DNA of 64,000 bases from Escherichia coli (GTDB lineage Bacteria > Pseudomonadota > Gammaproteobacteria > Enterobacterales > Enterobacteriaceae): assembly GCF_003334305.1 (NCBI RefSeq), contig NZ_QOWS01000024.1; one strand, 5' to 3'. The notes under the pieces were generated by a model. That model had not been told where the DNA came from, ran no database searches, and saw nothing but the letters and a program-made list of their open reading frames with translations. The position numbers and the translations under genes were made by a program. Position 1 is the stretch's first letter. Each line of letters opens with the position of its first letter. Positions 1 to 5,159 of the stretch are shown here, piece by piece.

Positions 1-76
1 GGGTGATTAGCTCAGCTGGGAGAGCACCTCCCTTACAAGGAGGGGGTCGGCGGTTCGATCCCGTCATCACCCACCA
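1..76 (+). tRNA. tRNA-Val (anticodon UAC)
   Basis: 76-nt sequence GGGTGATTAGCTCAGCTGGGAGAGCACCTCCCTTACAAGGAGGGGGTCGGCGGTTCGATCCCGTCATCACCCACCA; anticodon loop CTTACAA; CCA end; matches E. coli tRNA-Val1 from memory. Confidence 0.9.
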
Positions 77-78
77 CC

Positions 79-154
79 GGGTCGTTAGCTCAGTTGGTAG
101 AGCAGTTGACTTTTAATCAATTGGTCGCAGGTTCGAATCCTGCACGACCCACCA
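79..154 (+). tRNA. tRNA-Lys (anticodon UUU)
   Basis: 76-nt sequence with anticodon loop CTTTTAA, T-arm GGTTCGAATCC, CCA end; 2-nt spacer from tRNA-Val as in the lys/val tRNA array. Confidence 0.9.
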
Positions 155-160
155 ATGTAA

Positions 161-187
161 AAAAGCGCCCTAAAGGCGCTTTTTTGC
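161..187 (+). terminator. rho-independent terminator after tRNA-Lys
   Basis: Hairpin AGCGCC-CTAAA-GGCGCT followed by a T-tract. Confidence 0.6.
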
Positions 188-293
188 TATCTGCGATACT
201 CAAAGATTCGAACCTGCAGCAGGTTTGAGTTGAGCGCAGCGAAACAACGGAGCCGCTCGCGGCGACGGCCCGAAGGGCGAGCGAAGCGAGTCA

Positions 294-346
294 TCCTGCA
301 CGACCCACCAATGTAAAAAAGCGCCCTAAAGGCGCTTTTTTGCTAT
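294..346 (+). repeat. direct repeat: second copy of tRNA-Lys 3' end plus terminator (copy of about 138..190)
   Basis: TCCTGCACGACCCACCAATGTAAAAAAGCGCCCTAAAGGCGCTTTTTTGCTAT occurs twice, about 156 bp apart; the second copy lacks the 5' part of a tRNA. Confidence 0.7.
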
Positions 347-478
347 TCAGGCATCCTCAATTTCACTTTGTAAACCTGATGACATCGTCAGAGCTTACTG
401 TGCAAGCAACTCTACGTCGGTGGAATTAGGCGTAATTCGAGTGACTTTTCCCCACCATTCGACTATCTTGTTTAGCAT

Positions 479-496
479 ATAAAACAAATTACACCG
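479..496 (+). promoter_or_regulatory. candidate NadR operator (NAD box-like) upstream of nadA
   Basis: TGTTTA-N6-AAAACA, close to the TGTTTA-N6-TAAACA consensus, about 60 bp upstream of nadA start. Confidence 0.4.
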
Positions 497-558
497 ATAA
501 CAGCGAATATTACGCTAATGTCGGTTTTAACGTTAAGCCTGTAAAACGAGATGGTAAG

Positions 559-1602
559 ATGAGCGTAATGTTTGATCCAGACACGGCGATTTATCCTTTC
601 CCCCCGAAGCCGACGCCGTTAAGCATTGATGAAAAAGCGTATTACCGCGAGAAGATAAAACGTCTGCTAAAAGAACGTAATGCGGTGATGGTTGCCCACT
701 ACTATACCGATCCCGAAATTCAACAACTGGCAGAAGAAACCGGTGGCTGTATTTCTGATTCTCTGGAAATGGCGCGCTTCGGTGCAAAGCATCCCGCTTC
801 TACTTTGTTAGTCGCTGGGGTGAGATTTATGGGAGAAACCGCCAAAATTCTCAGTCCGGAAAAAACAATTCTGATGCCGACACTTCAGGCTGAATGTTCA
901 CTGGATCTCGGCTGCCCTGTTGAAGAATTTAACGCATTTTGCGATGCCCATCCCGATCGTACTGTCGTCGTCTACGCCAACACTTCTGCTGCGGTAAAAG
1001 CGCGCGCAGATTGGGTGGTAACTTCAAGCATTGCCGTCGAACTTATTGATCATCTTGATAGTTTGGGTGAAAAAATCATCTGGGCACCCGACAAACATCT
1101 GGGGCGTTACGTGCAAAAACAGACGGGTGGAGACATTCTATGCTGGCAGGGTGCCTGTATTGTGCATGATGAATTTAAGACTCAGGCGTTAACCCGCTTG
1201 CAAGAAGAATACCCGGATGCTGCCATACTGGTGCATCCAGAATCACCACAAGCTATTGTCGATATGGCGGATGCGGTCGGTTCCACCAGTCAACTGATCG
1301 CTGCTGCGAAAACATTGCCACATCAGCGGCTTATCGTGGCAACCGATCGGGGCATTTTCTACAAAATGCAGCAGGCAGTGCCAGATAAAGAGTTACTGGA
1401 AGCACCAACCGCAGGTGAGGGTGCAACCTGCCGCAGCTGCGCGCATTGTCCGTGGATGGCCATGAATGGCCTTCAGTCCATCGCAGAGGCATTAGAACAG
1501 GAAGGAAGCAATCACGAGGTTCATGTTGATGAAAGGCTGCGAGAGAGGGCGCTGGTGCCGCTCAATCGTATGCTGGATTTTGCGGCTACACTACGTGGAT
1601 AA
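559..1602 (+). CDS. nadA: quinolinate synthase
   Basis: ORF track 347 aa, N-terminus [18 protein letters not shown]; recognised as NadA; followed by pnuC. Confidence 0.95.
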
Positions 1603-1639
1603 CGAATAATAAGGCGTAACGTTACGCTTTGGGGGAAAG

Positions 1640-2359
1640 ATGGATTTTTTTAGTGTGCAGAATATCCTGGTACATATACCAATAGGGGCAGGCGGTTATG
1701 ATCTCTCATGGATCGAAGCGGTAGGCACGATCGCCGGGTTGCTGTGTATTGGCCTTGCCAGTCTGGAGAAGATCAGCAACTACTTCTTTGGCCTGATCAA
1801 CGTCACCTTGTTTGGCATTATTTTCTTTCAGATTCAGCTGTATGCCAGCCTGCTATTACAGGTGTTTTTCTTTGCCGCGAATATTTACGGTTGGTATGCG
1901 TGGTCGCGACAAACCAGTCAGAACGAGGCGGAGTTGAAAATTCGCTGGTTGCCATTGCCGAAGGCACTCAGCTGGTTGGCGGTTTGCGTTGTTTCGATTG
2001 GTCTGATGACGGTATTTATCAATCCGGTGTTTGCATTTTTGACCCGCGTGGCAGTCATGATCATGCAAGCATTAGGATTACAGGTTGTGATGCCTGAACT
2101 GCAACCGGACGCTTTCCCGTTCTGGGATTCATGCATGATGGTGTTATCTATCGTGGCAATGATTCTGATGACGCGTAAGTATGTGGAAAACTGGCTGTTG
2201 TGGGTGATTATTAACGTGATTAGCGTCGTTATTTTTGCACTTCAGGGCGTTTACGCCATGTCTCTGGAGTACATCATCCTGACCTTTATTGCGCTCAACG
2301 GCAGCCGGATGTGGATCAACAGCGCACGTGAAAGAGGCTCACGCGCGCTGTCCCATTAA
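1640..2359 (+). CDS. pnuC: nicotinamide riboside transporter PnuC
   Basis: ORF track 239 aa, hydrophobic multi-TM protein; nadA-pnuC operon context. Confidence 0.92.
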
Positions 2360-3297
2360 TGGTGATGATGTGAATGGCCAGACACCCCTTCATTCAGGTG
2401 GCAGTCTGGCCCATGACAAGGTTGATATTCCATCTGAATGGTGGCGTGCTCAATCTGATAGTGATCCATCAGGTAGTGTTGGATCTGATCCAACAAGGCA
2501 TCGTGATCGTGTGGCGGGATCACCTGCACATGCAACGTCATCACCGGCTTCTCGCCTACCATCCATACATGTACATGGTGCACATTGCGGACTTCCGGGA
2601 TTTCCCGGCACATACGACGCTTCAGTTCAGCGATATCCAGCGATACCGGTGCACCTTCAAGTAATTCATTCACGCTATCTTTCAACAGTCGCCACGCGCT
2701 ACGCAGAACCAGAAGCGACACCAGTATCGAGAGAATGGGGTCAGCAGGTGTCCAGCCAGTCCAGATAATAATCAACGCGGCAATAATAGCCCCAACCGAA
2801 CCCAGCAGGTCCCCGAGCACATGCAGTGCCGCTGCTCGTACGTTGAGGTTTTTCTCTTCGCTGCCGTGATGAAGTAACCAGAAAGAAAGTATATTTGCCA
2901 GCAACCCAGCCACGGCAATTGCCATCATCATGCCGCCCTCGACCGGACGCGGCGTGCGGAAGCGTTCTATCGCCTCCCAGACAATCAAAATGGTAATTAC
3001 CACGAGGGCTATGGCATTCACAAACGCCGCGAGCGTGGTCAGTCTTAGCCAACCGAAAGTGTGGCGAATGGTGGGAGGACGACGTGAAAATTGCACGGCG
3101 AGTAGGGCGAAAAGCAGGGCGGCAGTATCGGTCAACATATGACCCGCATCGGCCAGCAATGCCAGAGAACCAGAAAGAAAACCACCAACGACTTCTACCA
3201 GCATAAACCCGGCAGTCACGCCGAAAGCATACAACAAGCGACGAGCATTATTATCTTCTGGCAGGTGTGAGGACGTGTGTGAGTGTGAGTGCGCCAT
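2356..3297 (-). CDS. zitB: zinc efflux transporter, cation diffusion facilitator family
   Basis: ORF track 313 aa, His-rich N-terminus [11 protein letters not shown] and C-terminal HSHHHH; convergent with pnuC and overlapping its end by 4 nt. Confidence 0.92.
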
Positions 3298-3410
3298 GAC
3301 GAGTCATCCCTTAATTATTCTCACTTAACTTTATGACATCATACTGCTTTTAGAAGTGAAAAATTAAAAGGGAGAGACTCCGCTCTCCCATTATTGGCTA
3401 TTTTGCAGGG

Positions 3411-3791
3411 TTACTGCGTGGTACCGTCGGTTTTGGTATCGACATCATTATTGATGCCATCACCGGTTTGTACCTTTTTATTGATATCCGGACAGCGACC
3501 ATCTTTGCACATGGTGTTCTTGTGCTCTTCATCTTTGGTCATTCCGTCATTGTTCATTGAAGAACCATCCGAATGCAGCATTGTGCCACCAGAACCGGTA
3601 TTTACCCCGTTATTGTCGACGTTATTTGGCGCGACATTTTCACGGGCGTCAGGGGCTACCTGGCCCGCATCAGCTGCGGCGTTTGCCTGGCCGTTATTAG
3701 TTTGCGCTCCGCTATCGGCAGCCAGTGCGGCACCGCTGGCAAGGCTTAGAGTGGCAGTCAGAAATAATGTGGCCAGTTTTGTCATTTTCAT
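3411..3791 (-). CDS. ybgS: secreted low-complexity protein YbgS
   Basis: ORF track 126 aa; signal peptide [24 protein letters not shown]; Asn/Gly/Asp/Thr-rich mature part. Confidence 0.85.
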
Positions 3792-4018
3792 AGGATGCTC
3801 CTGTTATGGTCGTTATGTCGGATAACCTCTTCCAACAGTGCATTTGCAGGTGAATATAAGGCATTGGTTTAAGATTTCAGCCAGGTTATGAAACGCAGCA
3901 GAGAATCTTGAAATAATTAACAAACAAAGGAGTTACAGTTAGAAATTGTAGGAGAGATCTCGTTTTTCGCGACAATCTGGCGTTTTTCTTGCTAATTCCA
4001 GGATTAATCCGTTCATAG

Positions 4019-4036
4019 TGTAAAACCCCGTTTACA
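4019..4036 (+). promoter_or_regulatory. TyrR box upstream of aroG
   Basis: TGTAAA-ACCCCG-TTTACA matches the TGTAAA-N6-TTTACA TyrR consensus, about 70 bp upstream of aroG. Confidence 0.55.
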
Positions 4037-4106
4037 CATTCTGACGGAAGATATAGATTGGAAGTATTGCATTCACTAAGATAAGTATGGCAACACTGGA
4101 ACAGAC

Positions 4107-5159
4107 ATGAATTATCAGAACGACGATTTACGCATCAAAGAAATCAAAGAGTTACTTCCTCCTGTCGCATTGCTGGAAAAATTCCCCGCTACTGAAAATG
4201 CCGCGAATACGGTTGCCCATGCCCGAAAAGCGATCCATAAGATCCTGAAAGGTAATGATGATCGCCTGTTGGTTGTGATTGGCCCATGCTCAATTCATGA
4301 TCCTGTCGCGGCAAAAGAGTATGCCACTCGCTTGCTGGCGCTGCGTGAAGAGCTGAAAGATGAGCTGGAAATCGTAATGCGCGTCTATTTTGAAAAGCCG
4401 CGTACCACGGTGGGCTGGAAAGGGCTGATTAACGATCCGCATATGGATAATAGCTTCCAGATCAACGACGGTCTGCGTATAGCCCGTAAATTGCTGCTTG
4501 ATATTAACGACAGCGGTCTGCCAGCGGCAGGTGAGTTTCTCGATATGATCACCCCACAATATCTCGCTGACCTGATGAGCTGGGGCGCAATTGGCGCACG
4601 TACCACCGAATCGCAGGTGCACCGCGAACTGGCATCAGGGCTTTCTTGTCCGGTCGGCTTCAAAAATGGCACCGACGGTACGATTAAAGTGGCTATCGAT
4701 GCCATTAATGCCGCCGGTGCGCCGCACTGCTTCCTGTCCGTAACGAAATGGGGGCATTCGGCGATTGTGAATACCAGCGGTAACGGCGATTGCCATATCA
4801 TTCTGCGCGGCGGTAAAGAGCCTAACTACAGCGCGAAGCACGTTGCTGAAGTGAAAGAAGGGCTGAACAAAGCAGGCCTGCCAGCACAGGTGATGATCGA
4901 TTTCAGCCATGCTAACTCGTCCAAACAATTCAACAAGCAGATGGATGTTTGTGCTGACGTTTGCCAGCAGATTGCCGGTGGCGAAAAGGCCATTATTGGC
5001 GTGATGGTGGAAAGCCATCTGGTGGAAGGCAATCAGAGCCTCGAGAGCGGGGAGCCGCTGGCCTACGGTAAGAGCATCACCGATGCCTGCATCGGCTGGG
5101 AAGATACCGATGCTCTGTTACGTCAACTGGCGAATGCAGTAAAAGCGCGTCGCGGGTAA
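4107..5159 (+). CDS. aroG: 3-deoxy-D-arabino-heptulosonate-7-phosphate synthase, Phe-sensitive
   Basis: ORF track 350 aa, MNYQNDDLRIKEIKELLPP; recognised as AroG. Confidence 0.95.
   Translation: MNYQNDDLRIKEIKELLPPVALLEKFPATENAANTVAHARKAIHKILKGNDDRLLVVIGPCSIHDPVAAKEYATRLLALREELKDELEIVMRVYFEKPRTTVGWKGLINDPHMDNSFQINDGLRIARKLLLDINDSGLPAAGEFLDMITPQYLADLMSWGAIGARTTESQVHRELASGLSCPVGFKNGTDGTIKVAIDAINAAGAPHCFLSVTKWGHSAIVNTSGNGDCHIILRGGKEPNYSAKHVAEVKEGLNKAGLPAQVMIDFSHANSSKQFNKQMDVCADVCQQIAGGEKAIIGVMVESHLVEGNQSLESGEPLAYGKSITDACIGWEDTDALLRQLANAVKARRG

Follow-up and report, generated by a model that had tools for sequence, protein, structure and literature searches.

When the 3' end of a tRNA gene recurs, together with its terminator, a short distance downstream, the question is how the second copy arose: as the scar of an integrated element, as the residue of a further tRNA gene, or as part of a repeat with a character of its own. 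We addressed this question for a duplication near the start of a 64,000-nucleotide stretch of an Escherichia coli contig (NZ_QOWS01000024.1, assembly GCF_003334305.1), hereafter the window, in which a copied tRNA-Lys tail lies in the spacer between a lys/val tRNA operon and nadA, the downstream gene for quinolinate synthase (559-1602, + strand; ORF list and RefSeq annotation of matching genomes). We read window positions 191-346 as one unit of the tRNA-linked repeat (TLR) or RtT family, the number of units shifting by recombination or slippage and the unit probably serving as a second terminator reached by read-through, and we give this reading a probability of about 85%.

Anatomy of the duplicated tRNA-Lys tail

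The window opens with tRNA-Val at 1-76, followed on the + strand by tRNA-Lys(UUU) at 79-154, here the final gene of the lys/val tRNA operon (both from ARAGORN; the Rfam tRNA model scores tRNA-Lys at 79.2 bits), and ARAGORN detected no tRNA beyond these two within window positions 1-5000. The repeat search reported a single direct-repeat family, consisting of two + strand copies of 54 nt at 137-190 and 293-346 that are 100% identical and 156 nt apart, and an exact 54-mer repeat of this kind is far beyond chance. Each copy comprises the last 18 nt of tRNA-Lys, ATCCTGCACGACCCACCA (137-154 and, as an orphan 3' end, 293-310), and a 36-nt trailer with a rho-independent terminator hairpin, AAAAAAGCGCC-CTAAA-GGCGCTTTTTT, at 159-185 and 315-341. 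The preliminary description had already noted that the tail and terminator are duplicated 156 bp on, and the repeat is exact, with the tRNA part measuring 18 nt and not the 17 nt given there. A promoter/terminator scanner flagged neither hairpin on the + strand, probably because its stem extension uses up the T run, and the terminator call is based on a reading of the sequence and on published mapping (PMC4176162).

Between the two copies lies a body of 102 nt (191-292, +), and body and second copy (293-346) together make up a unit of 156 bp that is gained or lost as a block. The left arm of the body at 205-217 (+), GATTCGAACCTGC, is the perfect reverse complement (13/13) of T-arm positions 127-139, that is, of the T-stem 5' strand and T-loop of tRNA-Lys. 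It is followed by the forward 5' half of the T-arm, GCAGGTT at 219-225, and in the minimum-free-energy fold the inverted and the forward pieces face each other in hairpin P2 (206-230, +), where ATTCGAACCTGC pairs with GCAGGTTTGAGT. The remainder of the body (231-292, +) is a conserved core made up of GAGCGCAGCGAAACAACG, a hairpin, GGCCCGAAGGGCGAG, a second hairpin and GAGTC (alignments A1 and A2; sequence comparison), and the same fold places a G+C-rich stretch in a stem-loop at about 249-296, so that both the inverted T-arm-like fragment and the GC-rich stem-loop described beforehand were recovered. On the + strand the body has no ATG and no tpr-like ORF as in tyrT, and the ORFs crossing the region on either strand are only short and unconvincing ones in the ORF list.

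The body looks like a T-arm split by an insertion, as judged from its forward T-arm 5' half combined with the T-stem 3' strand, acceptor strand and CCA end, and this resemblance speaks for a decayed tRNA-Lys gene, an extra array member left by an internal deletion during array contraction; the array itself is rearranged between strains. However, neither a D arm nor an anticodon arm nor an acceptor 5' strand is present, and positions 155-346 gave zero tRNA matches with ARAGORN and with the Rfam tRNA model at E values up to 10, in line with the earlier statement that the filler holds no complete tRNA. An inverted left arm is unexpected from simple decay, intermediate alleles are absent from thousands of genomes, and the core (about 60 nt), with covarying hairpins of its own, recurs in conserved form after unrelated tRNAs and 5S rRNA. 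We consider a decayed tRNA gene very improbable. The preliminary description had offered a decayed tRNA copy arising from recombination within the array; the recombination can be retained, but the decayed tRNA gives way to T-arm and acceptor 3' pieces joined to a distinct core.

The other reading put forward at the outset was integration of an island or prophage at the tRNA-Lys 3' end by a tyrosine integrase, with later deletion of the element leaving attL and attR behind. Such an integration does duplicate the tRNA 3' end as a direct repeat, and as in att sites of tRNA genes the repeat extends from the T-loop through the CCA end. Unlike an att scar, in which the repeat is confined to the crossover segment of the tRNA 3' end, the repeat here occupies 54 nt and continues 36 nt past the tRNA, taking in the whole terminator hairpin. 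No integrase, cargo or remnant was found between the repeats, either in the ORF list for the 102-nt body or in the alleles seen, and a search of 2.9 million viral contigs returned 0 matches for the core motif and 1 match for a second pattern. That sole match was considered as a phage link and rejected, as it is host DNA beside a Mu-like prophage with a transposase and without an integrase.

The tRNA-linked repeat family

TLRs were first seen in 1978 (Egan & Landy) and were catalogued by Rudd (1999, Res Microbiol 150:653), and E. coli K-12 has 22 copies at 10 loci, with 1-5 per locus (PMC8144298). In a scan of window positions 1-700, the Rfam RtT RNA model (RF00391) matched 185-310 on the + strand over its full length (model positions 1-130) with 46.7 bits (E = 7e-8), barely passing the gathering score of 45, and our own covariance model, R1, placed its sole match in the 64-kb window at 189-310 with 78.9 bits. 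The features by which the literature defines these repeats were found as well: tRNA-Lys at 79-154 is followed on the same strand by a repeat body that runs to 310, positions 293-310 equal 137-154 at 18 of 18 nt with identity continuing for 36 nt more, and the similarity to the covariance model lies above the curated threshold. The outer helix seen in other copies has largely been lost here, and it does not belong to the literature definition.

The same assignment has been made automatically elsewhere. A megablast search of 5,426 complete E. coli genomes showed that in many strains, among them K-12, RefSeq (PGAP) places an 'RtT sRNA' exactly here; in the curated K-12 record NC_000913.3 the only such annotation is rttR at tyrT. 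With the Rfam model, the K-12 lysT operon yielded five RtT matches, one behind each tRNA-Lys gene, a number consistent with the 1-5 copies per locus, and the unit in the window corresponds to the terminal one. In nothing essential does the window unit differ from the K-12 TLRs, which likewise stand directly 3' of a tRNA gene on the same strand, end in the last 18 nt of that tRNA and share the core; it is simply a terminal, post-terminator copy with a decayed outer helix, and its repeat reaches 54 nt because the terminator was duplicated along with the tRNA end. Neither the element nor its family or hallmark is new. For annotation purposes this is an ordinary catalogued repeat, which should be reported neither as an integration scar nor as a tRNA pseudogene.

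Within the family the parts come in a fixed order. A left arm, complementary to the T-stem and acceptor 3' strand of the local tRNA, is followed by the 5' half of a T-arm in forward orientation (GGTTCGAG) and then by a conserved core that forms three hairpins over about 60 nt, and a copy of the final 18 nt of that tRNA closes the repeat. The core form ...GAGCG-AGCGAGA-AACGTTGC-NNNN-GCAACGGCCCG(A/G)AGGG... is common to the window copy, the four internal lys spacers, the tyrT repeats and the region distal to the rrnB 5S gene, and the repeats of the internal lys spacers, tyrT and rrnB each terminate in the 3' end of their own local RNA. Across many Enterobacterales the core occurs behind tRNA-Lys, Ser, Arg, Tyr and Pro genes and behind 5S rRNA. 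A metagenome scan with a core 22-mer, GGTTCGAGNCGAGCGNAGCGAG, as query gave 116 stretches, in which it follows tRNA-Lys, Ser(GGA), Ser(GCU), Tyr, Arg(CCG) and Pro(UGG), and the 22-mer is identical behind five tRNA types from different genera. About two thirds of the metagenome TLRs with an upstream tRNA carry its last 18 nt at 16-18 of 18 positions, often at 18 of 18, with the tRNA-like tail lying about 65-72 nt past the start of the core. Such a conserved, structured filler, shared with tRNA-Ser, Arg, Tyr, Pro and 5S rRNA loci, is hard to reconcile with the integrase reading, and sets the locus apart from att sites in tRNA genes.

The match between the left arm and its local tRNA was quantified in fixed alignment columns with only Watson-Crick pairs counted. 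Against tRNA positions 61-68, left arms formed on average 6.6 of 8 pairs with the cognate tRNA and 4.9 of 8 with non-cognate ones, and the cognate means reached 7.7 for Arg, 7.5 for Ser and 7.75 for Tyr (of 8). An earlier version of the test, which allowed free offsets and G-U pairs, barely separated the two sets (8.5/11 cognate and 7.4/11 non-cognate). The complementarity could stem from the way in which the repeats are generated rather than from selection on an RNA. This quantified rule for five tRNA types is an addition of the present survey, along with population frequencies and a cross-genus picture, though it may already stand in Rudd's 1999 catalogue.

RNAalifold applied to the MAFFT alignment A2 found only invariant mini-helices, because the variable stems are misaligned there, and this approach was replaced by a hand-specified structure, a covariance model built from 25 of the TLR sequences and a model-based alignment; the model found 123 copies in the loci fetched for comparison. 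Both-sided changes were seen in 28 of 29 pairs in this model-based alignment, which is fitted to the tested structure and so leans towards it; on this alignment 86.8% of cells were paired, compared with 72.7% after shuffling and 29-45% when partners were slid by 1-3 columns. Covariation is seen in all helices of the family. In the window copy, the model alignment retains 5 of 9 pairs in P1, 6 of 6 in P2, 4 of 6 in P4, 4 of 4 in P5 and 2 of 4 in P6. The 5/9 pairs of its outer helix compare with 7-9/9 in most family members, the variable part of this helix has 3 of 8 Watson-Crick pairs, and the left-arm segment expected to pair with 293-301, for which the consensus is GTGCAGGAT, now reads ACTCAAAGAT. 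On this alignment the window copy is a degenerate TLR with a decayed outer helix.

Two better-known members of the family allow a closer comparison. The RtT RNA, or rttR, of tyrT-tyrV (RF00391) has the same order of parts and the same tandem organisation, with about three units of 178 bp at tyrT. In contrast to that locus, the ends of the window unit derive from tRNA-Lys and not from tRNA-Tyr, a tpr-like ORF is lacking, the score is only 46.7 bits with the outer helix mostly unpaired, and an intrinsic terminator follows the unit, whereas the tyrT units are not each followed by one. RrA, RrB and RrF are TLRs located between T1 and T2 of rrnA, rrnB and rrnD (PMC8144298), and their layout is that of the window: a mature 3' end, a first terminator, a TLR with an 18-nt copy of that end and a second terminator (T1-RrB-T2 in rrnB), at a spacing of 150 bp for the rrn copies and 156 bp here, with the core AACGTTGC-NNNN-GCAACGGCCCG(A/G)AGGG shared. 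They differ from the window unit in that the rrn tails are copies of the 5S rRNA 3' end and that T1 and T2 have different sequences, while the two terminators of the window are identical. The RNAs of RrA, RrB and RrF arise by read-through of T1, RrB being a discrete RNA that is released with the tail copy at its 3' end, and binding to Hfq and CsrA has been shown for rrn copies only (PMC8144298).

Unit number at lysQ-nadA and lysV

Population frequencies were obtained from the same 5,426 complete E. coli genomes. With a junction-specific query (191-420), the 156-bp unit was present between lysQ and nadA in 2,511 genomes (46%) and was accordingly missing from this site in about 54%, and the lysV-xapR site, also assessed at its junction, was occupied in 1,911 (35%). 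The 102-nt body occurred somewhere in 3,243 genomes (60%), at a median of two places per genome, leaving 40% without it altogether. A query covering 240-420 at 80% coverage or more had given 4,079 genomes as lysQ occupancy; this figure was dropped as inflated, since it joins pieces from internal TLRs.

The alleles at lysQ-nadA differ by whole units. Strain LA3 has 0 units and an exact empty site with flanks that are otherwise identical, the window and K-12 have 1, and strain 10035776-3 has 2 in tandem, the middle repeat of which carries the A variant of the lysV type. O157:H7 and YY76-1 are likewise without a unit, on a diverged spacer haplotype. In K-12 a near-identical unit, with 1 SNP relative to that of the window, closes the valU operon behind lysV. 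Strains without the second copy, and an occupied/empty polymorphism in the spacer, had been anticipated beforehand; both exist, the former as the LA3 allele and the latter, among the 5,426 genomes surveyed, as 0-, 1- and 2-unit alleles with exact boundaries.

An occupied/empty polymorphism is also what integration and loss of an element would leave, but here the alleles step by complete tandem 156-bp units (0, 1 or 2) with no cargo in any of them, and tandem variation in copy number is foreign to tRNA-gene att sites, as is a locus with neither integrase nor cargo and a repeat that enters the terminator. Together with a filler that belongs to the conserved TLR family and the lack of any viral link, this leads us to abandon the insertion scar first suggested for the locus, which we now hold to be exceedingly improbable.

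Several further features of these loci were noted in passing. E. coli strains differ in how many lys and val tRNA genes and internal repeats the operon contains and in how these are ordered, and the arrangement with Val-Lys directly before the terminal unit is rare, occurring as one continuous match in 3 of the 30 best-matching genomes. At lysV-xapR in K-12 (830-1021 of the fetched locus) the repeat also includes CTGCGAT, which brings it to 61 nt, and a REP-like sequence comes next. The spacer between terminator and nadA (window 347-450) exists as two haplotypes, K-12-like and O157-like, which are about 88-90% identical, and the repeat unit occurs on both. Nearer to nadA, K-12 has a 28-bp insertion, AAATGACGCATCCTGCACATTAGGCGTA, between window positions 436 and 437 (1537-1564 of the fetched locus), flanked by the short direct repeat ATTAGGCGTAA and containing ATCCTGCAC, with which the tRNA-Lys 3' end motif begins; other strains have a different segment of about 29 bp at this site. 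The sequence TCTTGTTTAGCATATAAAACAA upstream of nadA (window 465-490), a putative NadR operator (NAD box), hardly varies among all the enterobacterial nadA upstream regions that were fetched. In nine genera Rfam identified the CpoB/ybgF thermometer element (RF02782) ahead of the lys tRNA operon, with 125-156 bits; it lies about 200-860 upstream of the tRNA array and so beyond the window, which begins inside the array.

Units of the same type were found in other genera. Among NadA-anchored loci, RtT matches above threshold stand beside lys tRNAs in Mangrovibacter (107 bits), Yersinia, Pectobacterium, Rahnella, Acerihabitans, Enterobacter spp. and Citrobacter, and units that duplicate the terminator occur in Enterobacter sp. 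BIGb0383, a clear ortholog, in Enterobacter sp. Ag1 and, as two units, in Mangrovibacter. An IMG/VR contig (positions 7595-11605 and 12170-12712) has three tandem repeat-plus-terminator units of 153 bp behind tRNA-Lys in the flank of a Mu-like prophage. The prophage, which is inserted beside tRNA-Lys, encodes a MuA-like transposase, a MuB-like ATPase, a Ner-like protein and a repressor. Escherichia albertii is without the unit and has about 600 bp with an apparent ORF between the lys terminator and nadA (about 1750-2380 of the fetched locus).

Possible roles of the repeat

Judging from the alleles, the identical 54-nt repeats would allow the number of units to change through slippage or homologous recombination, and ectopic exchange with the near-identical unit at lysV probably contributes as well. 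As to expression, published mapping in K-12 (PMC4176162) puts the 3' end of the primary lysT transcript, of about 1,100 nt, at the first terminator behind lysQ, which RNase P removes 2-3 nt past the CCA; the lysV terminator is identical to that of lysQ and was likewise mapped as a transcript end. Since the unit stands downstream of the point at which the lysT transcript stops, only read-through would transcribe it. Such an RNA would be cleaved after its tRNA-like tail in the manner of the rtT RNA of the tyrT operon, annotated as a discrete species of 171 nt that ends at the CCA, and the practical effect of the unit is probably that of a second, fail-safe terminator ahead of nadA. The unit is dispensable, as it is missing from about half of the strains.

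A more ambitious reading is that the window copy acts as a functional RtT-type sRNA or cis-regulatory RNA, either binding or sponging Hfq and CsrA in the way of RrA, RrB and RrF or serving as a decoy for factors that act on tRNA 3' ends. The family offers some encouragement, since its structure is conserved and covarying, five tRNA types from different genera are followed by an identical core 22-mer, rtT RNA exists as a discrete product, and TLRs distal to rrn operons yield, after processing, RNAs with in vitro binding to Hfq and CsrA (PMC8144298). Yet among TLRs a known function is confined to these rrn-distal copies, an early claim of a role for rtT in the stringent response was withdrawn, and TLRs of tRNA operons score below 0.01 for predicted CsrA binding (PMC8144298). 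The copy in the window, moreover, lies beyond the mapped terminator (PMC4176162), has lost most of its outer helix (5 of 9 pairs left), barely passes the Rfam threshold and is absent from many strains at this locus and from a large minority altogether. In view of its post-terminator position, its decayed outer helix and its patchy presence, we regard a function of this copy as an RNA as improbable, and the reading as a terminal TLR with at most a read-through role is the one that we retain. Roles that may be worth testing for such units are those of a fail-safe terminator, of a substrate for RNA processing and of a recombination substrate that reshapes tRNA arrays.

At the level of the family, the appearance of the core behind at least five tRNA identities and 5S rRNA, always with the local 3' end copied in the tail and, at tRNA loci, with a left arm complementary to that end, suggests that it behaves like a small propagating module. 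This might reflect an undescribed non-autonomous element, or a template switch, that targets the 3' ends of stable RNAs, or else selection for an RNA that imitates the 3' end of the local tRNA or takes its place, and we put both ideas forward as rather unlikely ones. If either were true, the 0-, 1- and 2-unit alleles at lysQ-nadA and the alleles at lysV would be ready-made test material, and, more generally, the match of the left arm to its cognate tRNA, the covariation of the helices and the natural presence/absence alleles at two E. coli loci may help to test whether TLRs do anything.
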